A DNA stretch of 64,000 bases from an uncultured Lentisphaeria bacterium. Its GTDB lineage: Bacteria; Verrucomicrobiota; Lentisphaeria; Victivallales; Victivallaceae. Numbering within the stretch: the first letter of the stretch is position 1; every line of letters begins with the position of its first letter. Location: contig CALABZ010000086.1 of NCBI GenBank assembly GCA_937888615.1, positions 342 through 64,341 of the forward strand, read 5' to 3'. Position numbers and translations under genes: made by a program. Below the pieces are notes generated by a model. That model was given only the letters and a program-made list of their open reading frames with translations, was not told the DNA's origin and did no database searches. Below, one piece after another: positions 32,223-58,683 of this stretch.

Positions 32223-33868
32223 ATAATAAACTCCGAAATTTGGTGCTCATTCTGTCGCTGGTGGCCGTTACCGGTATTCTGGCAATTCTCCTGAACTCGA
32301 CCAGTGACCGGCTCAACGTGATGGTCAAAGAGCATAACCTCCACGCGACCGGGCAGATCAGCAATGCGCCGCCGATGGTTGTTTTCACCACCATGGCGCT
32401 GGGCAGTTTCCGCGGCATTCTGGCGGATGTGCTGTGGCTGCGCGCCGCTTCGCTGCAGGATTCCGGCAATTACTTCGAAATGGTCCAGCTTGCATACTGG
32501 ATTACCGAACTCCAACCGCGTTTTTCAGGGGCCACCGCCTACTTGGCCTGGAATATGGCGTACAACATTTCCGTGACCTGTTCGTTGCCGCAGGACCGCT
32601 GGCGCTGGGTCATGGAGGGAATTCGCCTGATCCGGGACAAGGCCATCAATTATAACCCCAGCGATCCGGTCATTTACAAAGAACTCGGCTGGATTTTTAT
32701 GCACAAAATGGGAAATGTCCTCGACGACGCCAACAAATATTACAAAAACCGACTGGCGGTGGAAGTCGGCGAAATCATCGGCGACAATCCCGACTGGGAG
32801 AAGTATATCGCGGCACCGAAAGACGAGGCCGCATTCAAAAAATTATATCCACCGAAGAATCCGTTCTGGAAGACTCTGGAAACGGCCGGTTTCGCCAACC
32901 TCGGGGAACTCTACGCCAAATTCGTCGAGGCCAAGGGACAAGTGCCTGAATCGCTGACCAAACAGATGGCGGCCGATAAAATCAACATCGATATTGATTA
33001 CTATCTGCGCCGTCAATGGCTGATGGAGGAGTTCCGCCTCGACGCCGACCTGATCAACCAGATCAATAAAGAGTACGGCAAACTGGAATGGCGTCTGCCG
33101 GAATCCCAGGCCATCTACTGGGCGACCAAGGGGCTTGAAATGACGGTGGGGCACCGCGATCTTTCCTGTGAACGCATGATCACCCAAGCCCTCAGCAACT
33201 CCTTCCAGGCCGGTCGTATTCTGTGGCTTGACAAGGTGAATTACGAAAACATCATCCTGGTCCCGAACTTCAATGTGGTCGATTCAGTAGAAAAGGCCTA
33301 TCAGAAAGCCTGGGAACAGAACGATCATCAGTCCAGTTTCCGTTCGGCGAAGATCAACTTCTACAAAGATGCGATCACGCTGTTGTACAACTACGGCGAC
33401 ATCAAAAAGGCCCAGGAATATTACGGCAAACTCCGCAAGGAAGAGCCCGGAGCACATCGGTTGTCGCTGGACAATTTCGTCATGAAGGAATGGTCGGAAG
33501 ACGTTCGGGACGCCAGCATCAAGCAAGCGACCGACCAGATCAGCGGCCTGATTTACCAGAGTTGCCTGTATCTGGCGCTGGGTGACGACGACGCGGCCAC
33601 ATCCCACGAACGCATGGCGCGTTTCCTCTACGGCACTTATATGAAGACCGTGGAAGGCATTGAAGGGCGTGTCGGCCTGCCGCCCTACGCGCAGATGAAG
33701 AAATCAATCGTGGAATTCTGTTTGAAAACTTTCCCGCCGGCAGTGGCGGCAGTCCTGCGCGATCGACTAAGTCAGGAACTCGAAGATCAGAACAAGCAAT
33801 TGCCCGAGCAGAAAAGCTCGTTGCTGCCGGACAGCAAAGCGCTTCTACCGCTGCCCGCCATTAAGTAA
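32219..33868 (+). CDS. Membrane-anchored helical hypothetical protein (549 aa)
   Basis: ATGA start/stop overlap with the permease-like gene. One N-terminal TM helix (LVLILSLVAVTGILAILL), followed by W/Y-rich helical sequence. I recognised no family. Confidence 0.65.
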   Translation: MNNKLRNLVLILSLVAVTGILAILLNSTSDRLNVMVKEHNLHATGQISNAPPMVVFTTMALGSFRGILADVLWLRAASLQDSGNYFEMVQLAYWITELQPRFSGATAYLAWNMAYNISVTCSLPQDRWRWVMEGIRLIRDKAINYNPSDPVIYKELGWIFMHKMGNVLDDANKYYKNRLAVEVGEIIGDNPDWEKYIAAPKDEAAFKKLYPPKNPFWKTLETAGFANLGELYAKFVEAKGQVPESLTKQMAADKINIDIDYYLRRQWLMEEFRLDADLINQINKEYGKLEWRLPESQAIYWATKGLEMTVGHRDLSCERMITQALSNSFQAGRILWLDKVNYENIILVPNFNVVDSVEKAYQKAWEQNDHQSSFRSAKINFYKDAITLLYNYGDIKKAQEYYGKLRKEEPGAHRLSLDNFVMKEWSEDVRDASIKQATDQISGLIYQSCLYLALGDDDAATSHERMARFLYGTYMKTVEGIEGRVGLPPYAQMKKSIVEFCLKTFPPAVAAVLRDRLSQELEDQNKQLPEQKSSLLPDSKALLPLPAIK

Positions 33869-33950: not shown

Positions 33951-34394
33951 TCAGAATACGTATTCCGCCTTTTTGGCTTTTGCCCTGGAATTTTCTTCGA
34001 TCACATGGGCCAGGGTAATCGCCGCGGCCTCGCGACGAAATGTTTCGGAAAGGCGCTTCCAGATGCGGGTGGTTTCACAAACGGGCAGACGTGAACAAAT
34101 CTGACTGCCTTTGGTACAGCGGACCAGTTCCAGTTTGCCTTCGAAGAGCTCGATCACTTCCAACAGCGTAATGGACTCGGGGGGACGGCTCAAAAGATAT
34201 CCGCCGGCGCATCCGCGTTCCGCCCGGACCATGCCGGAGCGTTTCAGCGAAATCATGATCTGTTCGATATAGGGCTCGGTTATCTCCTGGGTTTCGGCCA
34301 GTGTTTTGCCCTTGACCGATACGCCGGTATTATAATTGAGCGCCAGTTGAATCAGAATCCTGACTCCATACCTGGATTTACTGGAAAGGTTCAT
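33951..34394 (-). CDS. Rrf2 family transcriptional regulator (three-Cys, Fe-S-type)
   Basis: SKSRYGVRILIQLALNY...LAETQEITEPYIEQIMISLKRSGMVRAERGCAGGYLLSRP, plus the Cys triad CTKGSQICSRLPVC. Confidence 0.9.
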   Translation of the reverse strand: MNLSSKSRYGVRILIQLALNYNTGVSVKGKTLAETQEITEPYIEQIMISLKRSGMVRAERGCAGGYLLSRPPESITLLEVIELFEGKLELVRCTKGSQICSRLPVCETTRIWKRLSETFRREAAAITLAHVIEENSRAKAKKAEYVF

Positions 34395-34592
34395 AATTGC
34401 CTCCTCATCATATTACAAAAAAAATAATGTCTATTCAAAAAGTAAAGTATGACTTTTTCCGAAAAAAGCAAGTCCCTAAATCAATTTATTTGGATTTTTT
34501 TCATCATTTTTTATCATCCCAGTGTAAAAAACATGCTGAATTTGTGCCGTTTATGATTGAATTTCCCATATTTAATTATATTATTTTAAAGG

Positions 34593-34611
34593 CACCGGTA
34601 TTTCACCGGTA
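34593..34611 (+). promoter_or_regulatory. CACCGGTA x2 with 11-bp period, just upstream of the flavoprotein start
   Basis: CACCGGTA at 34593-34600 and at 34604-34611. Each copy contains the palindrome ACCGGT. The site lies 20 bp before the ATG at 34632, in the region divergent from Rrf2. Confidence 0.25.
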
Positions 34612-34631
34612 CGAAATATAGGGATACAGTT

Positions 34632-35252
34632 ATGAAAGTTCTATTAATCAACGGCAGTCCCCACCGCCAGGGGTGTACCTTTACCGCGTTGTCCGAAGTC
34701 GCGGCAACGCTGGAAAAACACGAAATCGACACGGAAATCTTCCACATCGGCGTCAAGGCGATTCACGGCTGTACCGCTTGCGGGGCCTGCGCCGAAAGCG
34801 GCTATTGTGTATTCAAAGAGGACACGGTAAACAGTGCCATCGATCTGTGCAAAAAAGCGGACGGCATTATCGTCGGCTCCCCGGTGTATTATGCGGGACC
34901 GAACGGAGCGTTGTGCGCATTCCTGGACCGGGTGTTCTTTATGAAGAGCCGTCCCTATGCCTACAAACCGGCGGCGGCGGTCGTCAGTTGTCGTCGCGGC
35001 GGGGCCAGCGCGGCATTCGACCGGCTGAACAAATATTTCACGATCTCAAACATGCCGGTCGTGCCCTCCCAATACTGGAACGCGGTCCACGGCAACACCC
35101 CCGATGAGGTGCGCCAGGATGCCGAGGGACTCCAGATCATGCGTACCCTGGGCAATAATATGGCATGGTTGCTGAAGTGCATTGAAGCCGCTAAAGGCAA
35201 AGTTCAACTCCCGGTAACGGAAGCCCCGGTCAGGACAAATTTCATTCGCTGA
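34632..35252 (+). CDS. NAD(P)H-dependent FMN reductase / iron-sulfur flavoprotein-like
   Basis: MKVLLINGSPHRQGCT...HGCTACGACAESGYC...IIVGSPVYYAGPNGALCAFLDR, i.e. a flavodoxin-like fold with a Cys cluster. Confidence 0.85.
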   Translation: MKVLLINGSPHRQGCTFTALSEVAATLEKHEIDTEIFHIGVKAIHGCTACGACAESGYCVFKEDTVNSAIDLCKKADGIIVGSPVYYAGPNGALCAFLDRVFFMKSRPYAYKPAAAVVSCRRGGASAAFDRLNKYFTISNMPVVPSQYWNAVHGNTPDEVRQDAEGLQIMRTLGNNMAWLLKCIEAAKGKVQLPVTEAPVRTNFIR

Positions 35253-35345
35253 AACCCGACTCTTGCCGAAATAATTCCGTTGACGGATTGAAAAAACACC
35301 GTTCCGGCGCTACATTTCTCAAATGTAAAAAAACGGAAAACAGCA

Positions 35346-35546
35346 ATGAAAATAATTTTTAACCGAAAAGAAATGGATGTCGCAGACGGCGTCACCTTGC
35401 GGGATTTTCTTCTGTCGGCCGGGCTCAATCTGGAACGTGTCATCGTGGAATTGAACGATGAACTGGTCCCGGGTCCCCGTTGGGAAGAAACCGTGCTGAA
35501 CGACGGCGACCGGCTTCTGGCGGTAACATTCGTCGGCGGAGGTTGA
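35346..35546 (+). CDS. thiS: ThiS-family sulfur carrier protein (ubiquitin-like, C-terminal GG)
   Basis: 66 aa, ending in VGGG. The length and pattern (NGK/RKE...TL..LL...G......VELN...VP) are typical of ThiS. Confidence 0.85.
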   Translation: MKIIFNRKEMDVADGVTLRDFLLSAGLNLERVIVELNDELVPGPRWEETVLNDGDRLLAVTFVGGG

Positions 35547-35550
35547 TCGC

Positions 35551-36162
35551 ATGAACTGCCTGCACCGTGGGCTGGAACGTTATTTCAGCGCGGAACAACT
35601 GGCGCGAATCGCCGCCGTGCGGGTCGGAATCGCCGGCGCCGGAGGGTTAGGGTCGAATTGCGCGCAAATGCTGGTGCGCAGCGGCTTCACCCAGTTGACG
35701 ATTGCCGATTTCGACGTGGTGGAAGCGGCAAACCTGAACCGTCAGTTCTTCTTCCCGGATCAGCTCGGCAGACCGAAGGTCGAGGCACTCCGGGAAAATC
35801 TGTTGCGCCTGAACCCCGATTTGAGGGCGAATTTTGTCAACCGCAGGATCGACGCGGACAACGCGCCGGAAACCTTTGCCGGGTGCGACGTGATCGTCGA
35901 AGCATTCGACCGCGCGGAATACAAAAAAATGTTGGCCGAAGTCTTTTATAACGCCGTTCCCCTCTACATTTCGGCCTCCGGCCTCGGCGGCTGGGGAAAC
36001 AGCGACTCCATCACGGTCCGGCGCGTCAACAGTCGTTTTTACCTGGTCGGCGACAGCGTCACCGAGGCGAACGAAGCAGCTCCGCCCTGTGCCCCCAGGG
36101 TTCATATCGCCGCCGCCAAGCAGGCGGACCTGGTACTGGCATATGCATTAGGAGATATTTAA
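35551..36162 (+). CDS. thiF: ThiF-family adenylyltransferase, short form
   Basis: GIAGAGGLGSNCAQMLVRSGF Rossmann motif and ADFDVVEAANLNRQ. It starts 4 nt after thiS. Confidence 0.8.
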   Translation: MNCLHRGLERYFSAEQLARIAAVRVGIAGAGGLGSNCAQMLVRSGFTQLTIADFDVVEAANLNRQFFFPDQLGRPKVEALRENLLRLNPDLRANFVNRRIDADNAPETFAGCDVIVEAFDRAEYKKMLAEVFYNAVPLYISASGLGGWGNSDSITVRRVNSRFYLVGDSVTEANEAAPPCAPRVHIAAAKQADLVLAYALGDI

Positions 36163-36182
36163 ATCATGAAGGAGAATCTGTC

Positions 36183-37091
36183 ATGCAGGATATGATCAAT
36201 GAAATCAAGCGCCTGAAAAAAGAGCGCAACGCCATCATCCTTGCCCATAATTATGTGCTGCCGGAAATACAGGACATTGCCGATTTTCTGGGTGACTCAT
36301 TGGAGCTGAGCATCAAGGCCCGCGATGCCAAAGCCGACGTCATCGTATTCTGCGGCGTCCGTTTTATGGCCGAAACCGCCAAGATTCTCTCTCCTGAGCG
36401 GACCGTACTGCTGCCGGTGCCCGACGCCGGTTGTCCGATGGCCGACATGGCCGACGCCGAAAAAGTCCGCGCTTTCCGCAAACAATATCCCGACGCCGTC
36501 GCCATCTGCTATGTCAACAGCACGGCGGAGGTCAAGGCGGAAGTCGACATCTGCTGTACGTCGTCCAACGTCGACAAAATCGTCAGTCTGGTGCCGAAAG
36601 ACCGTGACATCATTTTCCTGCCGGACATTAACCTCGGCGCCAATGTCAGCAACAAGCTGAACCGGAAAATGTTGTTCTGGCCCGGCTTCTGCCCGATTCA
36701 CCATCATGCCACGCCGGAAATGGTCCGCGCGGCGCGTATCGCCCACCCCGGTGCAATCGTACTTGTACACCCCGAATGCCCGGTCGAAACAGTCGCCGAG
36801 GCCGATTATGCGCTGAGCACCGGCGGCATCCTCCAGTTCGTCCGCGAATCGGAGGCGAAAGAATTCATCGTCGGCACCGAATACGGCATCATAAACCGTC
36901 TGAAAAACGAGAATCCCGGCAAGAAGTTCTATAAACTACCCCATGACCTGATCTGTCCCGACATGAAGAAAACCAAACTGGCGGACGTACTGAACGCCCT
37001 CCAAAATATGGTCCACAAAGTGGAACTCCCCGTCGAGCTCATGGACCGCGCCAGACTGCCGATCACCCGGATGCTCGAACAGAAATTATGA
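36183..37091 (+). CDS. nadA: Quinolinate synthase
   Basis: NAIILAHNYVLPEIQDIADFLGDSLELS...FCGVRFMAETAKILSP...GCPMADM...CYVNS...CTSSN...HPEC. Matches NadA along its full length. Confidence 0.95.
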   Translation: MQDMINEIKRLKKERNAIILAHNYVLPEIQDIADFLGDSLELSIKARDAKADVIVFCGVRFMAETAKILSPERTVLLPVPDAGCPMADMADAEKVRAFRKQYPDAVAICYVNSTAEVKAEVDICCTSSNVDKIVSLVPKDRDIIFLPDINLGANVSNKLNRKMLFWPGFCPIHHHATPEMVRAARIAHPGAIVLVHPECPVETVAEADYALSTGGILQFVRESEAKEFIVGTEYGIINRLKNENPGKKFYKLPHDLICPDMKKTKLADVLNALQNMVHKVELPVELMDRARLPITRMLEQKL

Positions 37092-38158
37092 GTACGAAAC
37101 CTTTATATGTAGCGGCGATGAGCGGCGGAGTCGACTCCACCGTCGCCGCCGCGCTGGCCCTCGAGTCCGGAGCCCGCGTAACCGGCGTGACGCTGATCCT
37201 GCGGGACTGCGACGGCAACGGCGGCTGCGGCAGCGACGACCGCGAACAGGTCACCCGGGTCGCCGCCCAGCTTGGTATTGAGCACCAGTTCCTTGATCTG
37301 CGCCGCGAATTCCGCGAAAAAGTGTTGGAATATTCCTGGAACGAATATCGGGCCGGACGCACCCCGAATCCCTGTGCGTTCTGTAATTTTCACCTGAAAT
37401 TCGGACTGCTTGCTGAACACGCCCGCGCCCTCGGCGCCGACGCCATGCTGACCGGCCATTACGCCATCCTTGATCATGAAAAAGGCGAACTCCGTCACGC
37501 CGTCGATACCAGCAAGGACCAGGTCTATTTCCTCGCGCTCCTGACCCGCGAACAACTGAAGTTCTGCCGGATGCCCCTCGGTTCTTTGACCAAAGACGAA
37601 GTGCGCCGCCGCGCCGATGTGCTGGGACTTGAAAACGCGCGGAAAAAGGAAAGCCAGGATGCCTGCTTCGGGGTTCCCGGTGAAGCTTTTTCGCAAACAC
37701 TGGCGGCTTATTTCGAAGCCGCGCCGGTCCCCGGTGAAATCGTGGATGAAAACGGCAAGGTGCTGGGACGCCATCAGGGCATTCATCTTTATACCATCGG
37801 CCAGCGCAAAGGGCTCGGCGTGGCGATGGGCCGTCCGGCCTATGTGACGGCTATCGACGCGAAAACCGGGCGCGTGGTGCTTTCCACCGACTCAAGCGTA
37901 CTGTTGCGGAACATTATCGAAGTGGACCGGGTCAACATGATGGCGGACCGCCCCGAACAATTCCAATGCGAAGTCCAGACCCGTTACCGCCAGAAACCGG
38001 TGCCGGCGACTGTAACCCTGCTGGCCGGAGGACGGGCTCGACTGGAATTAAACTCACCGGTCACGGCTCCGGCGGTCGGACAGGTCGCGGCCTTTTATGA
38101 CGGCGACCTGGTTCTCGGCGGCGGCATTATCACACAAACCAGCCAAAAGGAAAAATAA
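37088..38158 (+). CDS. mnmA: tRNA 2-thiouridine(34) synthase MnmA
   Basis: PP-loop AAMSGGVDSTVAA, NPCAFCN, TGHYA, DQVYFL, QDACF and HLYTIGQRKGLG. ATGA overlap with nadA. Confidence 0.95.
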   Translation: MSTKPLYVAAMSGGVDSTVAAALALESGARVTGVTLILRDCDGNGGCGSDDREQVTRVAAQLGIEHQFLDLRREFREKVLEYSWNEYRAGRTPNPCAFCNFHLKFGLLAEHARALGADAMLTGHYAILDHEKGELRHAVDTSKDQVYFLALLTREQLKFCRMPLGSLTKDEVRRRADVLGLENARKKESQDACFGVPGEAFSQTLAAYFEAAPVPGEIVDENGKVLGRHQGIHLYTIGQRKGLGVAMGRPAYVTAIDAKTGRVVLSTDSSVLLRNIIEVDRVNMMADRPEQFQCEVQTRYRQKPVPATVTLLAGGRARLELNSPVTAPAVGQVAAFYDGDLVLGGGIITQTSQKEK

Positions 38159-48710: not shown

Positions 48711-50648
48711 TTACTTCTGCTCCATTTTTTCGATTGCGTCGTTCAAAGCTTTGCGCATGATTTCCACCGGGGCGCTCAACCCGGTCCATAGTTCAAAAGC
48801 ACGGGCCCCCTGATGCAACAGCATGCCGCGTCCGTCCGCCGCGGGCAGTTGACGCTCGCGCATCCATTTGAGCAAAGGGGTCTGCTTGTAGATCGTGTCG
48901 AAAAACGGCAATCCCTTGATCAGTTCGGGATTCACCGGCATCGGATCATCCGCTTTCAGCCCGAGGCTCGTCCCCTGAATCACCACCTTGGAAGCGGCGG
49001 CCAGAGCCCGGATGTGATCCTCGTCATCAAGGGCTGAACAATCTGTCTTGAGCTTGGGAAAATGCGATTTCAATTCGGCGGCCAAATCACACGCCTTGCT
49101 CAATGTGCGATTCGCAAAAAACAATTTTGAGGCCCCGGTGGCGGCGAAACAGAACGCCGTCGCCTTCACCGCTCCGCCGCACCCCAAAAACAGAATCGAA
49201 CTGCCCTGAATCATCAGTCCGAATGCTTCGAACAATGCCATCGCCAATCCGTAACCGTCCGTCGAATACCCGGACAGTTTCCCGTCCCGGATCACAACGG
49301 TGTTGACGCTGGCGGCCCGACGGGCCGACTCCTCCACTTCATCCAGAAAAGGAATAATGTTCTCCTTGTGGGGGACAGTAATGTTGAATCCGAGCAATTT
49401 CTCCCGGGCCTCTTCCACAAAACCAGCCAGTTCGTCTTTGGATACCTCCACTTTGTCGTAAGGAGAGCCCAGGCCCGCCGCCTTGAACGCTGCATTCTGC
49501 ATCTGCGGGGACAACGAATGCGCCACCGGATGCCCGATCACCACATATTGGGTTCTGCGCAGATAAAAATGCTTTGAATTGCCCATCTTGTCATAACCGA
49601 TGGACTCGTTAATGTCCCGGATTGATTTTTCAAGGGCCTTTCTGGATTGCTCGGAATTCTCATCAATCCCGGGCTTGCCGCTGTAGAGCTGATACCCCGC
49701 GCGATAATGAGTATCGGTAATATTCGGCATGAGGACATTGGCCCCGGCCAACAGCCCGAGTTCACGCCCATTGGCGGACAACGCCTGCAGCGCAGTGGTC
49801 GAAGCAATATTGATATCCTTCAGCAAAATCCGGGCGCAGGCAATCATTTTCAATCCCAGTTCAAGCTGTTTCTGGCGGCGCACGTCGAAATCCGGCATAG
49901 CGGCCGCCAGCGGCGTCTGCGGATGCACCAGGTACGGTCCCATCCCGATCATGTCAATGTCCATTCGTTGAAAAAAACGCAGATCGTGGACCAGATTGTC
50001 CAGCGACTGATACGGCAGTCCGATCATGACACCGGTCCCGGTCTGGTATCCGACGGTCTGGAGGTCGAGCAGGCATTGCAGCCGCCGCTGGTAGGAATGG
50101 TCGCTCGGATGCAGTTTGGCGTACAACTCAGGATCTGAAGCCTCGATCCGCAGCAGATACCGAAGCGCCCCGGCCTCCAGCCAGCGCCGGTAAGTTTCAA
50201 TCGTCTGTTCGCCGAGCGAAAGGGTAATTCCAAGCTGGCCGTTGGTACGCCGCGTGATCTCCTTGAGAATGTATTCGATAAAATCAATGAATTCTTCGTC
50301 ATTGCGTTCGCCGCCCTGCAGAACGATGGAACCGTAGTGGTTATTCTGGGCCCAGATAACATTCTTCATGATTTCATTCTTTGTCAGCCAGAACCGCTTG
50401 ACATCGTGGTTGCTTTTGCGGATGCCGCAATAAAAACAGTCTTTATTGCAGATGTTGCTGAGCTCGACCAGCCCGCGAAAATAGACCACACGCCCGACGT
50501 ATTTGGTTTTCACCTCATAGGCCAGTTGATAAAGGCGTTGCAATTCGTCCGGGTCGGTAAGTCCCAGCAAATGTTTCAACCCGGCGTCATCCGGCTCACC
50601 GCCGTTTTCAATAAATTTGAAAAGTTCTTCCGTATTCATAATTTCCAT
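48711..50648 (-). CDS. Fusion protein: HydE/BioB-like radical SAM domain plus shikimate dehydrogenase (AroE)
   Basis: The N-terminal ~355 aa read GLVELSNICNKDCFYCGIRKSN (CxxxCxxC)...VLQGGERND. The C-terminal ~280 aa read VIGHPVAHSLSPQMQNAAF...NITVPHKE...NTV...STDGYG...GCGGAVKA...ANR...LLHQGARAFELWTG, covering all the AroE motifs. Confidence 0.85.
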   Translation of the reverse strand: MEIMNTEELFKFIENGGEPDDAGLKHLLGLTDPDELQRLYQLAYEVKTKYVGRVVYFRGLVELSNICNKDCFYCGIRKSNHDVKRFWLTKNEIMKNVIWAQNNHYGSIVLQGGERNDEEFIDFIEYILKEITRRTNGQLGITLSLGEQTIETYRRWLEAGALRYLLRIEASDPELYAKLHPSDHSYQRRLQCLLDLQTVGYQTGTGVMIGLPYQSLDNLVHDLRFFQRMDIDMIGMGPYLVHPQTPLAAAMPDFDVRRQKQLELGLKMIACARILLKDINIASTTALQALSANGRELGLLAGANVLMPNITDTHYRAGYQLYSGKPGIDENSEQSRKALEKSIRDINESIGYDKMGNSKHFYLRRTQYVVIGHPVAHSLSPQMQNAAFKAAGLGSPYDKVEVSKDELAGFVEEAREKLLGFNITVPHKENIIPFLDEVEESARRAASVNTVVIRDGKLSGYSTDGYGLAMALFEAFGLMIQGSSILFLGCGGAVKATAFCFAATGASKLFFANRTLSKACDLAAELKSHFPKLKTDCSALDDEDHIRALAAASKVVIQGTSLGLKADDPMPVNPELIKGLPFFDTIYKQTPLLKWMRERQLPAADGRGMLLHQGARAFELWTGLSAPVEIMRKALNDAIEKMEQK

Positions 50649-50743: not shown

Positions 50744-50776
50744 TGGCATTGACATTGCCGGAATTGCGGCTATAAG
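50744..50776 (+). promoter_or_regulatory. Overlapping sigma-54-like (TGGCAT-N5-TTGC) and sigma-70-like (TTGACA-16-TATAAG) promoter motifs upstream of the activator gene
   Basis: TGGCATTGACATTGC at 50744-50758. TTGACA at 50749-50754, a 16-nt spacer, then TATAAG at 50771-50776. The ATG is at 50814. Confidence 0.4.
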
Positions 50777-50813
50777 ATAGAGAAACAGATTTTACCAGGA
50801 CAAACCGGAATAT

Positions 50814-52160
50814 ATGACCGTAAAGAACAAAAAAACGCTGACGAAAGCTTCGACCGAAGCGATTCTCGAAAGTATCTCGGACGGCGTTTTCACCGTTGAC
50901 AGCGAATGGCGCATCAGCTCATTCAACCGCGCTGCGGAAACCATTACCGGCATCGATCGGGACGACGCCATCGGGCGCCCCTGCTCGGAAGTCTTCAAAT
51001 CCAGCATGTGCGAAACCTCCTGTGCCCTCCGCAACACTCTCGAAACCGGCAAACAAACGGTTAACCGCACCGGATTCATCATCGACCGCCAGGGACGCAA
51101 AATTCCGGTCAGTGTCTCCACCGCGGTACTGCGCGACGCCTCGGGACGGGTGATCGGCGGTGCCGAAACGTTCCGCGATCTTAGCGAAGTGGAAGCCCTC
51201 CGGCACGAGCTTTCCGAACGCAGCCGCCTCGGTGACCTGGTCACCCGGAGCTCCTCGATGCGCCAGATCAGCGAACTCGCCCCGCTGGTGGCCGCCAGCT
51301 CCTCCACCGTACTGATCAACGGCGAAACCGGCACCGGCAAGGAACTGCTGGCCCGGGCGATCCACGGCATGAGCAAACGCGCCGCCAAACCGTTCGTCGC
51401 CATCAACTGCGGCGCATTGCCGGATACCCTGCTCGAATCGGAACTTTTCGGCTACCGCAAAGGCGCGTTCACCGGCGCGACCCAGGACAAGCCGGGATTG
51501 TTCGCCCGCGCCGCCGCCGGTACGCTGTTCCTGGACGAAATCGGCGACATCTCTCCGGCGCTCCAAATCCGATTGCTGCGGGTGTTGCAGGAACACACCT
51601 ACGAGCCACTGGGCGGAACCCGCGCGGTAAGTACCGATGCCCGGGTCATAGCCGCCACGCACCGCGACCTCGCCGAACTGGTCAAAAACGGCCGCTTCCG
51701 CGAAGACCTTTATTATCGGATCAACGTGATCCGGTTAGAATTGCCGCCGCTGCGCCGCCGCAAAGAAGACATCCCGCTGCTGGTCGAACACTTTATCGAA
51801 CGTTTCAACCGCCTCCAACAGAAAAATATCGCGGGGATCGCCCCCGCCGCCCTCGAACTGCTGTTCGCCCACGACTGGCCCGGCAATGTGCGGGAACTGG
51901 AAAATGTCATCGAACGGGCGTTCGTCATCTGTACCGGCGACAGAATCACCCCCGAAAACCTGCCCGAAGAACTGACCGGGCGCGCCGGCAAAAATCGTTC
52001 CGGCGGCATCGGCGCGGCGGTAAACCAGGCCGAACGCCAATCCATTCAGGCGGCGTTGCAGAATTGCAACGGAAATTGTCAGGCCGCCGCCCGGATGTTG
52101 GGCGTTCACAAGACCACACTCTACCGGAAAATGAAGGTTCTCGGCCTCAAACGTCCCTGA
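50814..52160 (+). CDS. Sigma-54-dependent transcriptional activator (PAS sensor, AAA+, Fis-type HTH; no receiver domain)
   Basis: PAS: [33 protein letters not shown]+: [19 protein letters not shown], the GAFTGA loop ([10 protein letters not shown]), [19 protein letters not shown]-terminal HTH: [18 protein letters not shown]. Confidence 0.93.
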
Positions 52161-52174
52161 TCGCATTTTCTCAA

Positions 52175-52220
52175 GTTGCAATATTGCACCCATCATCTTT
52201 GAAAGTCGCAATATTGCTAC
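52175..52220. promoter_or_regulatory. Two palindromic upstream activator sites (GCAATATTGC cores) spaced 30 bp
   Basis: TGCAATATTGCA at 52177-52188 (a perfect 12-bp palindrome) and GCAATATTGC at 52208-52217. The centres are 30 bp apart and lie about 87 and 117 bp upstream of the -24 element. Confidence 0.55.
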
Positions 52221-52297
52221 CTATTTCTCTATCTACTATCCGTCCGCAAAAGCCACAAGACACTACAATCAAAAACCTTACAATAATACACAAAACA

Positions 52298-52312
52298 TGG
52301 CACGGCGTTTGC
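52298..52312 (+). promoter_or_regulatory. Sigma-54 (-24/-12) promoter
   Basis: TGGCACGGCGTTTGC (followed by T) matches the TGGCACG-N4-TTGCW consensus at every specified position. It lies about 40 nt upstream of the ATG at 52353. Confidence 0.8.
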
Positions 52313-52352
52313 TCTATAATCTTTCGTAACTGAAAACGAATATGGATACACC

Positions 52353-52727
52353 ATGAAAATCGCTTTAACCGTATGGAATGGCCGGATCGCACCGGTTTTT
52401 GATGTCGCCGGACGCCTGCTGATCGTCGATGAAGGGCAGGATTTGAAAGACGGCATGGAATGCGTCATGGCGGAAATGGAATGCCTCCCGGTCCGCATTA
52501 CCCGACTGAAACGGCTGGGCGTCGATGTCCTGGTCTGCGGCGCGATTTCCCGTCCGGCCCGAATGCTGGCGGAAAGTCAGGGCATCCGACTTCACGGTTT
52601 TATCTCCGGCAATCTTGAGGACGTATTTGAAGCATGGCGAAACAACAAACTCGACCACGAAAGTTTTGCCATGCCAGGATGCGCGCACCGTCATCACTGT
52701 TGCCGCCGCCGAAAAATGAAGATGTAA
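52353..52727 (+). CDS. NifX/NifB-type (dinitrogenase FeMo-cofactor-binding family) domain protein with a Cys/His-rich tail
   Basis: MKIALTVWNGRIAPVFDVAGRLLIV...LKRLGVDVLVCGAISRPARMLAESQGIRL. The tail is PGCAHRHHCCRRRK. Confidence 0.85.
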   Translation: MKIALTVWNGRIAPVFDVAGRLLIVDEGQDLKDGMECVMAEMECLPVRITRLKRLGVDVLVCGAISRPARMLAESQGIRLHGFISGNLEDVFEAWRNNKLDHESFAMPGCAHRHHCCRRRKMKM

Positions 52728-52775
52728 TGCACCATGGTGTCCGAAATAACCAAATCAACAAAAGGAGTCAATATC

Positions 52776-53000
52776 ATGCCGAACGGTGATGGAACCGGTC
52801 CCCTCGGAACGGGACCCAGATGGGGCGCGGGATGCCGCGCCGGAAATAACAACCCCGGAATGGGTTTCGGCCGGAAAAACGGCGGGCGCGGCGCATGGTG
52901 CCGTAATTTTCCTGCGGACCGGACGACGCTGGAACGGCAGGCGGAAGTCCTGCAGACACGCTTAGATGCCGTCAAACGCCAAATGGATGACAAATCCTGA
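52776..53000 (+). CDS. DUF5320-like small Gly-rich protein with a C-terminal coiled coil
   Basis: The start is moved to MPNGDGTGPLGTGPRWGAGCRAG (RBS AAAGGAG 8 nt upstream). The MP(R/N)GDGTGP opening and the C-terminal helix LERQAEVLQTRLDAVKRQM match what I recall of DUF5320. Confidence 0.7.
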   Translation: MPNGDGTGPLGTGPRWGAGCRAGNNNPGMGFGRKNGGRGAWCRNFPADRTTLERQAEVLQTRLDAVKRQMDDKS

Positions 53001-53028
53001 CCCGCGTCCGATAACTCTATATAACTCT

Positions 53029-53054
53029 CCCGGCGGCGGTTTTCCGCCGCCGGG
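53029..53054 (+). other. Perfect 11-bp GC-rich hairpin inside the operon (intercistronic)
   Basis: CCCGGCGGCGG-tttt-CCGCCGCCGGG, followed by AATGGAGATTACATTATG, so there is no U-tract and the next gene's RBS comes immediately after. Confidence 0.6.
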
Positions 53055-53069
53055 AATGGAGATTACATT

Positions 53070-53432
53070 ATGAAAATCGCAGTAACTACCGCCGGAACCA
53101 CCCTGGACGATGCTCTGGAGAGCCGTTTCGGGCGTACGCCCCGCTTCCTGATCGTCGATACGGCGGACGGCACATTCGAGTCCGTGGACAATATCCAGAA
53201 CCTGAACGCCGCCCAGGGCGCGGGGATTCAGGCGGCCATGACCGTCGTCAACGCCGGTGCGGAAGCCGTCATCACCGGGCATTGCGGGCCGAAAGCCTTC
53301 CGGGTTCTCAATGAAGCCGGCGTTAAAATCTACAATATCGAAACCGTCACCGTCCGTGAAGCGGTCAAACTTTACCAGGAAGGCAAATTGCAGCCCGCGG
53401 AAAACGCCGACGTGGAAGGACACTGGTTATAA
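53070..53432 (+). CDS. NifX/NifB-type cofactor-binding domain protein
   Basis: MKIAVTTAGTTLDDALESRFGRTPRFLIVD...NAAQGAGIQAAMTVVNAGAEAVITGHCGPKAFRVLNEAGVKIY is the canonical pattern of this family. Confidence 0.9.
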   Translation: MKIAVTTAGTTLDDALESRFGRTPRFLIVDTADGTFESVDNIQNLNAAQGAGIQAAMTVVNAGAEAVITGHCGPKAFRVLNEAGVKIYNIETVTVREAVKLYQEGKLQPAENADVEGHWL

Positions 53433-54292
53433 TGAAAATAGCAGTGGCGTCCGGCAAAGGCGGTACCGGCAAAACCACAGTGGCTTTGGCTTTGGCCGAA
53501 GCAGCCGCCACCGGGGTTTGCCTGCTCGACTGCGATGTGGAGGAGCCGAACTGCCGCCTGTTCGCACCGGCGGAAACCGTTTCCGAACCGGTCGGCATAC
53601 CGATGCCGGTCATTGACTCCGCACGTTGCAACGGATGTGGCGAATGCGCCCGAATCTGCCGTTTCCACGCGATTGCCGCGCTGAAACAAAAGGTTCTGCT
53701 GTTTCCCGAACTGTGTCACGGGTGCGGCGGCTGTTCGCGAATCTGTCCGACCGGAGCCTTGACCGAGCAACCCCGGCCAATCGGGGAAACCGGCCTTTCG
53801 AACAATGGCGGATTTCCGTTGCTGGACGGGCGGCTCGGCATCGGTCAGACAATGGCTCCACCCCTGATCCGCGCGGTCAAAGACCAGGGAGCACAATTGA
53901 AGGAAACAGAACTCGCCATCATCGACTGTCCGCCGGGAACGGCCTGCCCGATGGTGACAGCGGTGCGCGGTGTAGACTTCGTGTTGCTGGTCACCGAACC
54001 AACGCCGTTCGGATTGCATGACCTGAAACTGGCAGTGGAGGCGCTAAAAGAACTATCATTGCCCGCAGGCGTAATCATCAATCGCGCCGACAGCGGCGAT
54101 GGCCGGGTCCGGCGTTACTGCATGTTGGAAGCGCATATCCCGATTCTGCTGGAAATCCCGGCGCGACGGGACATCGCAGAGGCTTACTCGCGGGGCGAAA
54201 CGCTCCTTCAGGCCGCTCCGGACCTGAAACCGGCGTTCAAAAAGGTTCTCGTGAGCATCCGCGAAATGACGACAAAGGAGGCGGTACGATGA
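53432..54292 (+). CDS. MinD/CooC-like P-loop ATPase with an inserted 2x[4Fe-4S] ferredoxin domain
   Basis: Deviant Walker A ASGKGGTGKTT, CNGCGECARICRFHA and CHGCGGCSRICP motifs, then IIDCPPG and LLVTEPTPFGLHD. TAATG overlap with the preceding gene. Confidence 0.88.
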   Translation: MKIAVASGKGGTGKTTVALALAEAAATGVCLLDCDVEEPNCRLFAPAETVSEPVGIPMPVIDSARCNGCGECARICRFHAIAALKQKVLLFPELCHGCGGCSRICPTGALTEQPRPIGETGLSNNGGFPLLDGRLGIGQTMAPPLIRAVKDQGAQLKETELAIIDCPPGTACPMVTAVRGVDFVLLVTEPTPFGLHDLKLAVEALKELSLPAGVIINRADSGDGRVRRYCMLEAHIPILLEIPARRDIAEAYSRGETLLQAAPDLKPAFKKVLVSIREMTTKEAVR

Positions 54293-55155
54293 AAGAACTG
54301 GTTATCCTGAGCGGCAAAGGCGGCACCGGCAAAACCAGCATCACCGGTTCCTTCGCCGCATTGGCCCGAAACGCGGTATTGGCGGATTGCGATGTGGACG
54401 CCGCCGACCTGCACCTGTTGCTGGGACCGAACGTCCGCGCCAGACACGACTTTATTTCCGGCAACGAGGCGATAATCGACCCATCCCGCTGTACACAGTG
54501 CGGCACCTGCGCCGAATTATGCCGATTTCAAGCGATCAGCCGAAAGAACGGACGAATAACGCTTGATCCTTTCGGTTGCGAAGGTTGCGGCGTCTGCGTG
54601 GAATTCTGCCCGGAACAGGCTATTGCATTCCCGGAACGCCATTGCGGTGAATGGTACGAGTCGGACACCGTTTACGGACCGATGGTCCACGCGAAGCTCG
54701 CCCCGGCCGCCGAAAACTCCGGCAAACTGGTCACCCGGGTACGTACCGCGGCCCGGGCGGAGGCTGAAAAACGAGGCGCCGAATTGATCCTGATCGACGG
54801 TCCGCCCGGCATCGGCTGTCCGGTCATAGCCTCACTCAGCGGAGCGACGGCGGTGCTGGTGGTCACCGAACCGACCGTTTCAGGGGAACACGACCTCGGG
54901 CGGGTATTGCAATTGGCGAAACATTTCCGGGTTCCGGCGATGGTTTGCGTGAATAAATGGGATTTGAACCCCGAAACAACGTTGCGAATCGAACAGACAA
55001 CGGTCGCCGCCGGCGCAGTGCCGGTCGGCAGAATTCCTTATGATACGATCTTTACCACGGCCATGATTAATGGCCGCACGGTGGTCGATTATCCGGAATC
55101 CAAGGCCGCTGAAAATATTGTTAGAATATGGGAGCAATTATGTCAGACAATATGA
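54289..55155 (+). CDS. MinD/CooC-like P-loop ATPase with an inserted 2x[4Fe-4S] ferredoxin domain (paralog)
   Basis: LSGKGGTGKTS, CTQCGTCAELCRFQA, CEGCGVCVEFCP, LIDGPPGIGCP, LVVTEPTVSGEHD. ATGA overlap with the preceding gene. Confidence 0.88.
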   Translation: MKELVILSGKGGTGKTSITGSFAALARNAVLADCDVDAADLHLLLGPNVRARHDFISGNEAIIDPSRCTQCGTCAELCRFQAISRKNGRITLDPFGCEGCGVCVEFCPEQAIAFPERHCGEWYESDTVYGPMVHAKLAPAAENSGKLVTRVRTAARAEAEKRGAELILIDGPPGIGCPVIASLSGATAVLVVTEPTVSGEHDLGRVLQLAKHFRVPAMVCVNKWDLNPETTLRIEQTTVAAGAVPVGRIPYDTIFTTAMINGRTVVDYPESKAAENIVRIWEQLCQTI

Positions 55156-56378
55156 AGACGTGTGACCATGCCGCCGGATGCGGCGGCCACAATCACGAAC
55201 AGAACGAACAGAACGAACAGGAAAAACTGCGGTGCTGCCTGGACCGGATTCAGCACAAGATCATCGTCATGTCCGGCAAGGGCGGCGTGGGCAAAAGCAC
55301 CGTGGCCGTAAACCTGGCGGTGGCCTTGTCCATGGCCGGAAAACGGGTGGGACTGCTGGATGTCGATATCCACGGCCCCAGCATTCCGGTGATGTTGAAC
55401 CTGACCGGGGAACAGTTGGCCATGGCCGGCGAAAAGATGCAGCCGGTCAGCATCGGCACCCTGAAAGTCATGTCGATCGGTTTCCTGCTGCGCGACAGCG
55501 ACGAAGCCGTGATCTGGCGCGGCCCGATGAAGATGGGCGTGATCCGGCAATTCCTGACCGACGTCGAATGGGGCGATCTGGATTATCTGGTGATCGACCT
55601 GCCGCCGGGTACCGGCGACGAATCGCTTTCGATCTGCCAGACAGTGGAAAACGCCGACGGCGCGATCGTGGTAACGACCCCGCAGGAAGTTTCCGCCGCG
55701 GACGTCCGCAAATCGGTTGATTTCTGTCTGAAACTCGACTTGCCGGTCCTTGGAATCGTCGAAAACATGAGCGGTTTTGTCTGCCCGAAGTGCGGCGAAG
55801 TGACCGAGATTTTCAATTCCGGCGCCGGACAGGCGATCGCCGACAAATTCGGTCTGCGGCTGCTTGGCAAAATCCCGCTGGACCCATTGGTCTGCGCTGC
55901 CGGTGATTCCGGCAAACCCCTTATCTATCATTATTCAAAAACGGCTGTCGCCAAGGCATTTGAAACGGTCATCGCGCCGATTCTGGCCCTGTCGGAAGCT
56001 GTCAACTCTCAACCCAACAACAACAAAGAGAACAAAAACATGAAAATCGCCATTCCCCTTGCCGACGGAAAACTGTGCATGCATTTCGGACATTGCGAAC
56101 AATTCGCTCTGATCGACGTCAACGTCGATACCCAGCGAGTTACAGCCAGTGAACTCGTCACGCCGCCGCCCCACGAGCCCGGCCTGCTCCCGAAATGGCT
56201 CGGCGAAAAAGGCGTCACCCAGATCATCGCCGGCGGCATGGGCGAACGCGCCCAGCAACTGTTCGCCTCCCAGCATATCAACGTCGTGACGGGCGCTCCG
56301 GCGGAAGAACCGGAGAAACTGGTGGCGGATTTTCTTTCCGGGACACTTGTCACCGGTGAAAACGCCTGCGATCATTAG
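55140..56378 (+). CDS. Mrp/NBP35 (ApbC-like) Fe-S carrier ATPase fused to a C-terminal NifX/NifB-type domain
   Basis: The start is at MSDNMK (RBS GGGAG). Mrp part: VMSGKGGVGKSTVAVNLA...VIWRGPM...DYLVIDLPPGTGDE...CPKCGE. C-terminal ~115 aa: MKIAIPLADGKLCMHFGHCEQFALIDV...VTQIIAGGMGERAQQLF. The N-terminus is His/Cys-rich (CDHAAGCGGHNHEQNEQNEQE). Confidence 0.9.
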   Translation: MSDNMKTCDHAAGCGGHNHEQNEQNEQEKLRCCLDRIQHKIIVMSGKGGVGKSTVAVNLAVALSMAGKRVGLLDVDIHGPSIPVMLNLTGEQLAMAGEKMQPVSIGTLKVMSIGFLLRDSDEAVIWRGPMKMGVIRQFLTDVEWGDLDYLVIDLPPGTGDESLSICQTVENADGAIVVTTPQEVSAADVRKSVDFCLKLDLPVLGIVENMSGFVCPKCGEVTEIFNSGAGQAIADKFGLRLLGKIPLDPLVCAAGDSGKPLIYHYSKTAVAKAFETVIAPILALSEAVNSQPNNNKENKNMKIAIPLADGKLCMHFGHCEQFALIDVNVDTQRVTASELVTPPPHEPGLLPKWLGEKGVTQIIAGGMGERAQQLFASQHINVVTGAPAEEPEKLVADFLSGTLVTGENACDH

Positions 56379-56379
56379 G

Positions 56380-56787
56380 ATGAAGCGGGAAACACCATCC
56401 CCTCATCCCCATCCTCATTGCCTGCTCTGCGGAGACCGAAATCCGCAGAGCTTGCAACTGCATTTCGACGACGACGGCGAAGGACGGGTTTCCCGCTTCA
56501 AAGGCCGCCGTATTTTGCAGGGATATGAGGGGATATTACATGGGGGAGTCATCGCCTCGCTGCTGGACTCCGCCATGACCAACTGTCTGTTCCTCCAGGG
56601 CATCCGGGCGGTGACGGGTGAACTCAAAGTACGCTACCGCCATCCGGTTCCGTGTTACGCAGAACTGCTGCTGCGGGCGCAGATCGTGGAAACGCGAGGT
56701 TCGTTTTACGAGCTGAAAGCGGAACTGCTGCTGGAAGAACGGATCATGGCGCACGCCGACGCCAAATTCATCCGGCTCGCCGATTAG
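56380..56787 (+). CDS. Hotdog-fold thioesterase (PaaI/4HBT-like) with an N-terminal CxxC
   Basis: GILHGGVIASLLDSAMTNCLF is the PaaI-type active-site region. The N-terminus is HPHPHCLLCGDRNP. The gene starts 1 nt after the Mrp stop. Confidence 0.8.
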   Translation: MKRETPSPHPHPHCLLCGDRNPQSLQLHFDDDGEGRVSRFKGRRILQGYEGILHGGVIASLLDSAMTNCLFLQGIRAVTGELKVRYRHPVPCYAELLLRAQIVETRGSFYELKAELLLEERIMAHADAKFIRLAD

Positions 56788-56851: not shown

Positions 56852-56880
56852 TTGACAAATGTCGCGGTACATGTTATAAT
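56852..56880 (+). promoter_or_regulatory. Consensus sigma-70 promoter (TTGACA-17-TATAAT) of the LacI-pseudopilin-exoprotein operon
   Basis: TTGACA at 56852-56857, a 17-nt spacer, then TATAAT at 56875-56880. The ATG is at 56929. Confidence 0.7.
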
Positions 56881-57969: not shown

Positions 57970-58683
57970 ATGAATTCAGAAAGAACAAAACATTTCACAC
58001 TTATAGAGTTATTAGTAGTTATAGCCATCATAGCAATACTTGCGGCGATGCTGCTGCCGGCATTGAACAGCGCCCGCGAAAAAGCGCGATCCATCAGCTG
58101 CCTTTCCAATTTGAAGCAACTGGGTACTGCCGTCCATCTCTATGCCGACGACAATAACGGTTTCTCCACCGCGGTTTATCCGGACCGGTTCGGTGGAACC
58201 CGCTGGTGCGTTGAATACAACAGCAAATATATTCTGGACAGAAATGTCTTTTTGTGCCCCTCCGAGCCGCTGGCGAAATGGGAATCGACCTGGGAGACCG
58301 ACTGGATCCCATACGGTGTACCCAAGGAAATCGTCGGTCAGTACGGAACCCTGTTCAATAAAAAACCGCTTCCGGTTAAGTTGACTGATTTGCTCCATAA
58401 CGGCGCCACCCCCGCCCTTATCGGCGAAACCATCATAAAAGGCAAACCTGGAGCAAGCCATCCGGGAATGCTTTTTTATACCGTCGTCCCACCCAGCCCT
58501 TTCCAACTGCTTCCCGCCGCCTGGGAGCCGATTGACGCGCGTCATAACATGCAGGCAAATTTTGCAATCATCGATGGCAGTGCGGTTTCCCTCGGCACAA
58601 CCCGTATTCAGAGTGAAGTCAAAAAGTATTTCCGTCCCTATCAGTCCTGGAACGGTTCCGGCTTCACCCTGGTTTTCAACTAG
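57970..58683 (+). CDS. Prepilin-type N-terminal cleavage/methylation domain protein with an H-X9-DG motif
   Basis: [39 protein letters not shown] at the N-terminus, and [24 protein letters not shown]. Confidence 0.9.

Follow-up and report, generated by a model that had tools for sequence, protein, structure and literature searches.

An orange protein (ORP) locus with an OrpR-like regulator in an uncultured Lentisphaeria bacterium

Identity of the locus

We wanted to define which system is encoded by eight co-directional genes lying at about 50.7-56.8 kb, on the + strand, of a DNA stretch of 64,000 nucleotides from an uncultured Lentisphaeria bacterium (contig CALABZ010000086.1; this whole 64-kb stretch is called the window hereafter). 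The first gene encodes an activator and is followed by seven tightly packed genes. Made from the sequence alone, the original prediction regarded them as a candidate for an uncharacterised metallocluster-handling system, and knew of no experimentally defined role for such a combination. This last statement is wrong in substance: the combination is that of the orange protein (ORP) system, and one of the proteins passes the curated MrpORP model. The locus adds a member to a system known since 2011 and is not a new system. We consider it quite probable that it is the Lentisphaerota version of the ORP system, transcribed as one sigma-54 operon behind its own regulator and working as proposed below. 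The identification relies on the match to the MrpORP model and the presence of its four motifs, on the match of a small protein to the orange protein structure 2WFB, on the paired ATPases with Fer4 stretches, and on the cysteine triad and acidic residue of the OrpR-like activator. The system and its biochemistry have been published, and the term uncharacterised holds only for the physiological function, for which the published suggestion is cell division. As for metallocluster handling, it agrees with the published biochemistry of the homologous ORP system (PMC6345978, PMC8359166).

In Desulfovibrio vulgaris Hildenborough, orpR (DVU2106) sits between two divergent sigma-54 operons, orp5-orp4-orp3 (DVU2103-2105) and orp7-orp8-orp9 (DVU2107-2109). 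According to PMC3897727, PMC6345978 and PMC8359166, through which it is cited here, the 2011 J. Bacteriol. study defined a protein complex, a sigma-54 promoter and the cognate activator. Orp3 and Orp4 are paralogous ATPases with two [4Fe-4S] ferredoxin motifs each, Orp5 is homologous to a small [2Fe-2S] protein, Orp8 is the orange protein, which binds a Mo-Cu-S cluster, and Orp9, or MrpORP, joins an Mrp/NBP35 domain to a NifX-like "Di-Nase" domain. Orp3, Orp4, Orp5, Orp8 and Orp9 form a physical complex, and the two ATPases co-purify with the orange protein. In MrpORP, the CxxC motif binds a bridging [4Fe-4S] cluster and the NifX-like domain a [3Fe-4S] cluster; the protein has a polar location in the cell and transfers clusters in vitro to the apo Orp3-Orp4-Orp8 complex (PMC6345978). 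The window encodes the same main proteins, namely an activator, an orange protein, two ATPases and an MrpORP, together with two small proteins at the places where Orp5 and Orp7 would be expected, and likewise has a sigma-54 promoter, upstream palindromes and a sigma-70-like promoter for the activator. It differs from the D. vulgaris locus by an extra thioesterase gene and by a hairpin between the DUF5320 and ORP genes.

Family calls were made with the curated cut-offs of Pfam and NCBIfam, and sub-threshold calls were re-examined by profile-profile comparison, iterative search and structure modelling. In this way the predicted families were upheld, by Pfam or, for two sub-threshold proteins, by the other methods. 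The protein predicted to be an Mrp-NifX fusion (412 aa; 55140-56378, +) does consist of an Mrp part (PF10609, 344 bits) and a C-terminal Nitro_FeMo-Co domain (59.5 bits), and it matches the NCBIfam model NF041136, "iron-sulfur cluster carrier protein MrpORP", over its full length with 541.9 bits for a cut-off of 450. Compared with structures of the Protein Data Bank (PDB), it matches Cfd1 with E=1e-70. Its motifs CPKC, CMHFGHCE, TPPPHEPGLLP and terminal CDH are all four MrpORP signatures described in PMC6345978. The deviant Walker A motif, the CxxC, CxHFGHCE and TPPPHxPGxxP motifs, the terminal CDH and the cysteines of an N-terminal extension are common to the window protein (Orp9/MrpORP counterpart), D. 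vulgaris Orp9 and D. alaskensis Dde_3202. The spacing of the N-terminal cysteines differs (C-x5-C-x21-CC in the window, CX3CX20CXC in D. vulgaris, CXCX5CX4C in D. alaskensis), and the window fusion has no long inter-domain linker.

Two adjacent genes encode paralogous Orp3/Orp4-type ATPases of the same architecture, ATPase A (286 aa; 53432-54292, +) and ATPase B (288 aa; 54289-55155, +), both with CbiA/ParA and two Fer4 stretches in Pfam. ATPase A has the MinD/ParA fold with the deviant Walker A motif GKGGTGKT, and the signature lysine is kept in both. A ferredoxin domain of about 110 residues, for two [4Fe-4S] clusters, is inserted after the segment DCDVEEPN/DCDVDAAD; in ATPase A, MinD structures and Pfam ParA match residues 2-48 and 159-273, and ferredoxins match residues 58-111. 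Since the insert follows a switch-I-like segment, the nucleotide state should move the clusters. Two MinD-like ATPases with two CxxCxxCxxxCP motifs each had been predicted: each does carry two four-cysteine motifs, the first of which reads CxxCxxCxxxC-R, so that only the second has the proline. The KGGxGK[ST] P-loop is common to MinD/ParA, NifH and CooC ATPases, implying an ATP-dependent dimer, and the neighbouring Mrp-type protein belongs to those that carry a metal cluster at the dimer interface. The window ATPases differ from these families by the ferredoxin insert and by scores far under the MinD cut-offs (minD_bact, 30-48 bits for a cut-off of 212.9; minD_arch, 56-60 bits for 201.75). Adjacent pairs of such paralogues are found in most related loci. 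Among solved structures we found only MinD and ferredoxin pieces and none that spans a whole ferredoxin-inserted ATPase, and the literature found on COG1149, COG1433 and the inserted ferredoxin domain concerns HdrA, Fsr and MMP16, not these ATPases.

Three NifX-type carrier domains had been announced, and three are present: that of MrpORP and two in small proteins. The orange protein (ORP/Orp8) homologue (120 aa; 53070-53432, +) reaches 79.6 bits for Nitro_FeMo-Co in Pfam and matches the D. gigas ORP structure 2WFB over residues 2-110 (E=1.1e-21) as well as 1EO1 (MTH1175; E=3.5e-23). The other small protein (124 aa; 52353-52727, +) carries a Cys/His tail (…AMPGCAHRHHCC…; PGCAHRHHCC) and stays just below the Pfam cut-off (25.3 bits for 26.3). 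It was assigned to the NifX fold by hhalign against the NifX-like family (98.65% probability, E=4.9e-16, 109 columns) and by an AlphaFold (AF2) model with a pLDDT of 87.8, whose query-normalised TM-score to NifX-fold structures is 0.59-0.72; the structures matched are PH0822, TM1816, MJ0327, NifX in the NifEN complex, NafY and the orange protein. Homologues of this protein number more than 1,200, most of them with PF02579, and among 70 homologues C62 and M107-P108-G109 are invariant and C110 is near-invariant. The carriers of the nif system (NifX, NafY and the C-terminal part of NifB) have the same fold as the three window domains and carry anionic metal-sulfur clusters, but the window sequences group with MTH1175/ORP and not with NifX proper.

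The 74-aa Gly-rich protein (52776-53000, +) that had been called DUF5320-like also lies slightly under its Pfam cut-off (25.6 bits for 27). The call is nevertheless supported by iterative search with jackhmmer, which found the family co-directional with core genes in 32 of the 80 related loci described below, and by the conserved start MPxGDxTGPxGxGPxTGRxxGxCxG. This start is followed by a Gly/Arg/aromatic-rich middle and, as read from the sequences by eye, by a helical heptad-like C-terminal segment. With 74 aa the window copy is unusually short (about 110-130 aa elsewhere); its 45 N-terminal residues comprise 6 cationic and 1 acidic residues, 14 Gly and 4 aromatic residues. No solved structure was found for DUF5320. 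A protein of similar make-up is IssA, which serves thioferrate storage in Pyrococcus furiosus (PMC5524996) and combines a NifX fold of the MTH1175 clade with a cationic Gly/aromatic-rich segment. In IssA this tail is fused, whereas the window orange protein is tailless and the separate DUF5320 protein is alike in composition only. Two related loci (L053, 5575-6210; L018, 2239-2946) encode an orange-protein-like NifX domain fused to a DUF5320-like Gly-rich tail; these fusions have the IssA architecture and join two genes that are separate in the window.

From the gene order of one related locus (L050), we propose that the DUF5320 protein is probably the Orp5 counterpart and that the tailed NifX protein is probably the Orp7 counterpart. 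This locus is divergent as in Desulfovibrio, with DUF5320 and the two ATPases on one strand and OrpR, tailed NifX, ORP and MrpORP on the other, which would make Orp5 of the DUF5320 type and Orp7 of the tailed NifX type. A four-cysteine zinc-ribbon-like end (CxCPxCG…CPKCG) was also seen on some DUF5320-type and some tailed NifX proteins (L031, 5987-6262; L053, 6228-6455; L042, L044 and L046; L033, 1126-1800; L020, 3223-3810). Proteins of this Cys-rich type may correspond to the small iron-sulfur protein of ORP operons that is reported to bind [2Fe-2S].

To see how far the gene set is conserved, 80 related loci were obtained by a scan of species-representative genomes with the Mrp-NifX fusion protein as query. 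The best relatives are a metagenome-assembled genome (MAG) of Victivallis vadensis (L001, 72%) and other Lentisphaerota. Together with homologues labelled Victivallaceae and with the prepilin-type and prepilin peptidase genes mentioned below, they indicate a probable Victivallales-like host. Further relatives belong to the Verrucomicrobiota/Kiritimatiellia, the Planctomycetota and, in large number, the Desulfobacterota, then to the Synergistota, Fusobacteriota, Bacillota and candidate phyla. The order OrpR, tailed NifX, (DUF5320), ORP, ATPase, ATPase, MrpORP recurs fully or largely across these 80 loci and several phyla. OrpR has been viewed as restricted to Deltaproteobacteria (PMC8359166). 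The full system including OrpR is found here in MAGs labelled Verrucomicrobiota, Planctomycetota, Krumholzibacteria and UBP1, so the whole system with its Fe-S sensor extends well beyond the Deltaproteobacteria, into bacteria of the Planctomycetes-Verrucomicrobia-Chlamydiae (PVC) group. The minimal single-operon form defines a core made of tailed NifX, DUF5320, orange protein, two ATPases and MrpORP. Many strict anaerobes possess the ORP complex, on which work has gone on for more than 10 years; the cultivable V. vadensis, with its close homologue, could serve as a second experimental model.

Regulatory region and gene junctions

The activator gene (50814-52160, +) encodes an OrpR-like enhancer-binding protein of 448 aa with the PAS, AAA+ and Fis-type helix-turn-helix domains that had been predicted for it immediately upstream of the packed genes (PAS_9, Sigma54_activat with 232 bits and HTH_8 in Pfam). 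Its AAA+ domain has the GAFTGA motif where the D. vulgaris activator has GAFTDA. In D. vulgaris, OrpR senses redox via a [4Fe-4S] cluster of its PAS domain, and the three PAS cysteines C52, C61 and C65 are required for this sensing and are the proposed cluster ligands (PMC8359166). The PAS domain of the window protein contains C57-x-E59-x6-C66-x3-C70, a spacing equal to that of C52, D/E54, C61 and C65. Of 29 homologues scanned in related loci, 23 have this motif, and four of the remaining six are cut by a contig end. In D. vulgaris, orp transcription depends on OrpR, which works at about -425 mV, is switched off when the potential rises by about 140 mV, and in vivo binds only the two orp promoters, as seen by chromatin immunoprecipitation sequencing (PMC8359166).

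Upstream of the activator gene lies a sigma-70-like promoter (50749-50778, +; TTGACA, 18 nt, TAAGAT), which is a consensus match only, at 10 of 12 positions; D. vulgaris orpR is likewise sigma-70 driven (PMC3897727). With its TTGACA at 50749, this promoter explains why the stretch singled out by the original prediction starts at 50744. The consensus -24/-12 promoter described ahead of the packed genes was found as a perfect match, TGGCACGGCGTTTGCT, at 52298-52313 (+). When TGGCAC-N5-TTGCW was searched over the whole 64 kb, for which about two matches with at most one mismatch are expected by chance, TGGCACGGCGTTTGCT was the sole match without mismatch, which is not significant by itself. The promoter is credible because it lies about 40 nt ahead of the first gene and just after the gene of an enhancer-binding protein. 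Conservation of the regulatory elements was judged by eye in 20 related loci, of which about 19 have a GG-N10-GC element upstream of the first orp gene.

Between the activator gene and the promoter, a candidate OrpR-binding enhancer (52164-52220) consists of a 24-nt direct repeat in two copies 30 bp apart, and both copies contain the palindrome GCAATATTGC. The exact palindromes lie at 52178-52187 and 52208-52217, about 110 and 140 nt ahead of the presumed transcription start, and OrpR would bind both. The D. vulgaris palindrome is GGGCGYRTTTTGCGCCC, and its window equivalent reads TTGCAATATTGCA. Many of the related loci examined have paired palindromes of the GYNGC-N6-GCNRC type in this position too. 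As the cysteine motif, the promoter and the palindromes are all found in related loci, the regulatory design is conserved across phyla.

The seven genes that follow had been described as packed with coupling-type junctions, and a base-by-base reading agrees with every coordinate. ORP and ATPase A genes share TAATG at 53430-53434, ATPase A and B genes share ATGA at 54289-54292 with AAGGAGG upstream, and the ATPase B and MrpORP genes overlap by 16 nt (55140-55155), with GGAG 5 nt ahead of the ATG. At the last junction the TAG of MrpORP (56376-56378) is separated by a 1-nt spacer (56379) from the ATG of the thioesterase gene at 56380. Public gene calls, looked up by exact sequence, include all eight proteins and agree on the starts of the three ambiguous genes (74, 412 and 135 aa). 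Between the DUF5320 and ORP genes, in a gap of 69 nt, lies a perfect, G+C-rich hairpin of 12 bp with a UUUU loop (53028-53055, +) and no T-run after it. It folds with -33.1 kcal/mol (z = -4.6), better than any of 200 shuffles. The hairpin possibly serves transcript stabilisation, processing or partial attenuation, and it could give the two halves of the operon different expression levels. We also observed that its outer stem may pair with the GGAG ahead of the next gene.

Possible mechanism, thioesterase and competing explanations

The mechanism that we propose largely follows that of D. vulgaris. OrpR would be made from the sigma-70-like promoter and would sit on the two palindromes about 110 and 140 bp upstream. 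At low redox potential, with its PAS [4Fe-4S] cluster intact, it would use ATP to open the sigma-54 promoter, as in D. vulgaris and as the cysteine triad suggests for the window, and a rise of the redox potential would turn the operon off. The seven genes would then be translated together through their overlapping or abutting junctions. An MrpORP dimer, with a bridging [4Fe-4S] cluster on CPKC, would load the ferredoxin inserts of the ATPases, in line with the in vitro transfer in D. vulgaris, and the two ATPases would form a complex with the orange protein as they do in that organism. As the output, the ATPase pair would be an ATP-switched Fe-S module, and its target an anionic metal-sulfide species on the NifX-fold carriers, that is, the orange protein, the paralogue with the Cys/His tail and the C-terminal part of MrpORP. 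This species would be held with the help of the Gly/Arg/aromatic-rich DUF5320 protein, an idea that comes from the likeness in composition to the IssA tail, which is proposed to bind thioferrate, and from the fusions in L053 and L018. The thioesterase would be a lineage-specific add-on. The carrier idea is backed by the three confirmed NifX-like domains, by the same fusions, and by NifU-type, pyridoxal phosphate (PLP), radical S-adenosylmethionine (SAM) and HydG accessories in related loci.

Several points weigh against this reading. The D. vulgaris genes form two divergent operons and those of the window a single one; since single operons are also found in the Desulfovibrionaceae (L030, which has the core gene order in a single-operon layout), we take the divergent layout for a trait of the model strain and not for a defining one. 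Transcription of orp in D. vulgaris needs integration host factor (IHF), whose sites lie between enhancer and promoter, whereas no IHF consensus WATCARNNNNTTR with at most one mismatch was found between enhancer and promoter of the window (52220-52298), where there is an A-rich tract. The mechanism would be carried over from a sulfate reducer to a PVC-group bacterium at about 50% identity, as judged from Desulfovibrionaceae and Maridesulfovibrio loci. The proposed correspondence of Orp5 with DUF5320 and of Orp7 with tailed NifX is drawn from gene order in MAGs. It is also possible that the orange protein has a physiological ligand other than the Mo-Cu cluster. Finally, the output step is a conjecture, and the D. 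vulgaris authors favour a link with cell division, which is weighed below.

The last gene of the operon (56380-56787, +) encodes a THEM4-like hotdog-fold thioesterase of 135 aa with an N-terminal CxxC, as had been predicted (4HBT, 45 bits; PDB 4GAH/4AE8, human THEM4, E=5.6e-11). The CxxC is present in 20 of 20 homologues, and the motifs HxxCxxCGxxN, HGG…D and VTxEL are complete in the 16 close ones. The hotdog fold is common to THEM4/THEM5 and PaaI-type acyl-CoA thioesterases, and HGG…D and VTxEL align with THEM4, in which the Asp and the Thr are catalytic. The window protein differs from these enzymes by its N-terminal HxxCxxC and by its fixed place behind an Fe-S carrier gene in PVC bacteria. 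In 11 of 26 PVC loci a thioesterase gene follows the Mrp gene at a distance of at most 200 nt, and this arrangement is seen in 1 of the 44 other loci; as an accessory, the gene is typical of the PVC-group versions of the ORP system. The earlier statement that each family of the set is linked on its own to Fe-S or complex clusters must be restricted, since neither DUF5320 nor the thioesterase has an established link of this kind. A further PVC-type ORP cluster with a thioesterase gene was seen in a MAG labelled Akkermansia muciniphila (L002), its fusion protein being 63% identical to that of the window; the species label looks doubtful because the DNA seems G+C-rich by eye.

In related loci the core is often interrupted by other genes (for example L001, 3776-6227; L010, 4017-6682; L068 and L069). 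A census was made of co-directional genes interleaved with the ORP core in the 80 loci. It comprises a radical SAM protein of about 310 aa (21 loci), a metallo-beta-lactamase (MBL)-fold protein (18), a SAM methyltransferase (16), a TrmO-like protein (9), a 1-Cys peroxiredoxin and a CoA-disulfide reductase (7 each), DUF89 (at least 6), an FmdB zinc ribbon (6), and a Cys/Met PLP enzyme, a NifU-type scaffold and DUF134 (5 each). For the radical SAM and MBL-fold families, NCBIfam offers no specific name. When representatives of 18 recurrent accessory families, including those of the radical SAM, MBL-fold, methyltransferase, TrmO-like, peroxiredoxin, CoA-disulfide reductase, NifU-N, DUF134 and DUF89 proteins, were compared with the 64 kb, no counterpart was found anywhere in the window. 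As the accessories are mostly Fe/S-mobilising, radical-SAM and redox-protection proteins and the recurrent families identified include no division gene, they give mild support, and no proof, to cofactor handling over septum positioning.

Another explanation, which is that of the original prediction, is a dedicated machine that assembles or delivers a complex metallocluster for a client encoded elsewhere, such as the H-cluster of [FeFe]-hydrogenase or the cofactor of a Mo/W enzyme. This is possible, and we hold it to be rather unlikely. Proteins of the NifX fold do carry complex Fe-S species (NifB, NifX, NafY and IssA; PMC5524996), the orange protein binds a Mo-Cu-S cluster, and genes for a NifU-type scaffold, a Cys/Met PLP enzyme and radical SAM proteins are interleaved in relatives. 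In the window, a gene for a 645-aa HydE-AroE fusion (48711-50648, - strand) is divergent from orpR, with 165 bp between them. Its HydE part (TIGR03956, 320.5 bits for a cut-off of 254.6) is a radical-SAM maturase of the [FeFe]-hydrogenase H-cluster, and its AroE part is a full shikimate dehydrogenase (TIGR00507, 216 bits for 200.2). HydG lies within the orp gene chain of three loci (L004, L068 and L069; 444 bits for a cut-off of 312). A search of the 80 loci by tblastn with HydE, AroE and HydG found the HydE adjacency in the window only, and HydE was accordingly rejected as a conserved neighbour or clue to the client; to point to a client, occurrence in the window only, or in three loci for HydG, is not enough.

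The search for a client itself gave little. About 36 of the 49 long open reading frames (ORFs) of the window were put through Pfam or NCBIfam, and about 10 of these had no family at the cut-offs used. Among the scanned ORFs there was no structural family of nitrogenase, carbon monoxide dehydrogenase (CODH) or hydrogenase, no match to the nifHDK, nifEN or nifB radical-SAM partner families, which are equally missing from the accessory census, and no HydG, HydF or HydA. The claim that nifHDK, hydrogenase and CODH genes are absent from the window thus stands for the structural families among scanned ORFs, with the reservation that a maturase fusion adjoins the operon. Beside the core, no candidate client is conserved in the 80 loci. 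Moreover, the recipients demonstrated for MrpORP clusters are Orp proteins, namely Orp3/Orp4, with aconitase as the only other one and a test protein. These data lend no support to a machine that delivers clusters to a client missing from the window. As an observation apart, genes that look by eye like hypA and hypB lie directly upstream of orpR on the same strand in a Maridesulfovibrio locus (L024, 4299-5321), and the same pair of ORF families is found in L028. HypA and HypB serve nickel insertion into [NiFe]-hydrogenase. The HydE-AroE domain combination itself looks unusual.

The published suggestion is that ATPases of the MinD/ParA/Mrp type position the septum or the chromosome in anaerobes without a Min system, the Fe-S clusters tying this function to anaerobiosis. 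It is favoured by the D. vulgaris authors because orpR mutants show morphological defects and MrpORP is polar, as seen with a green fluorescent protein fusion; C-terminal amphipathic helices of Orp3 and Orp4 point in the same direction (PMC8359166, PMC6345978, PMC4672049). The window ATPases fit with this in that their C-termini are among the most amphipathic 11-mers of each protein (rank 3 of 276 and rank 1 of 278) and in that both have the deviant Walker A motif with its signature lysine. On the other hand, their scores do not approach the MinD equivalog cut-offs, no MinC or MinE was matched among the Pfam-scanned neighbours, and no division gene is present among the annotated neighbours or the recurrent accessory genes. 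Three NifX-fold carriers, an Fe-S carrier and Fe/S-mobilising accessories are hard to fit with positioning alone, and the authors themselves term the link a hypothesis awaiting confirmation. For the window, we judge this function to be quite improbable.

A store or buffer of iron-sulfide or thiometallate polymers similar to IssA, made only under strongly reducing, sulfidic conditions, seems to us still more doubtful. Here the NifX-fold proteins would nucleate an anionic polymer, the cationic, Gly-rich DUF5320 protein would wrap it, and the ATPases would load or mobilise it. The best structural relative of the orange protein, MTH1175, is placed in the IssA clade by PMC5524996, and the N-terminal composition of DUF5320, the NifX-DUF5320 fusions, and the peroxiredoxin and CoA-disulfide reductase genes interleaved in relatives would all agree with such a store. 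However, the window orange protein has no tail and the DUF5320 protein is short, the likeness to IssA is compositional and not a sequence homology, and for no ORP protein is there a report of particles or of thioferrate.

One may speculate that the PVC version of the module is a redox-gated, ATP-driven workshop for a complex metal-sulfur cofactor and not a cell-division device, an idea to which we attach little probability. It is hinted at by the thioesterase behind MrpORP, by the HydE and HydG adjacencies, and by the NifU, PLP, radical SAM and methyltransferase accessories. If it were true, the ORP complex would build, repair or deliver an organometallic or thiolate-bearing cluster, for instance for [FeFe]-hydrogenase, the thioesterase could set free an intermediate in acyl or thio linkage, or proofread it, and a first handle on the task of the orange protein complex would be at hand. 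The thioesterase and the HydE/HydG neighbours are in any case leads toward ORP function.

Lastly, that these are unrelated co-directional neighbours behind a promoter matched by chance is next to inconceivable, for even though about two chance promoter matches with at most one mismatch are expected and the genes are known from sequence alone, the same genes stand in the same order across several phyla, with overlapping or abutting junctions and with promoter and palindromes conserved in position, and this synteny contradicts a chance arrangement.

Surroundings of the operon

No intrinsic terminator was seen after 56787. At 56852-56880, a sigma-70 promoter with 12 of 12 consensus positions (TTGACA, 17 nt, TATAAT, with a TG) precedes the gene of a LacI-family regulator, which is followed by a DUF1559 prepilin-type protein (57970-58683) and a protein of about 935 aa without Pfam family. 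The segment 56929-61516 is a typical sugar-utilisation neighbourhood of the PVC group and marks the end of the orp operon. A prepilin peptidase is encoded near the DUF1559 prepilin-type gene.

Farther away, several ORFs of 426-880 aa have no Pfam family at E<=1e-8 (2026-4440, 4832-6679, 8518-11160, 14565-15845 and 30783-33868); these may be lineage-specific PVC proteins. A sulfur- and Fe-S-related run of genes was also observed at 33951-38158, encoding an Rrf2-family regulator, a flavin mononucleotide (FMN) reductase, a ThiF-family protein, the [4Fe-4S] enzyme NadA, and MnmA.

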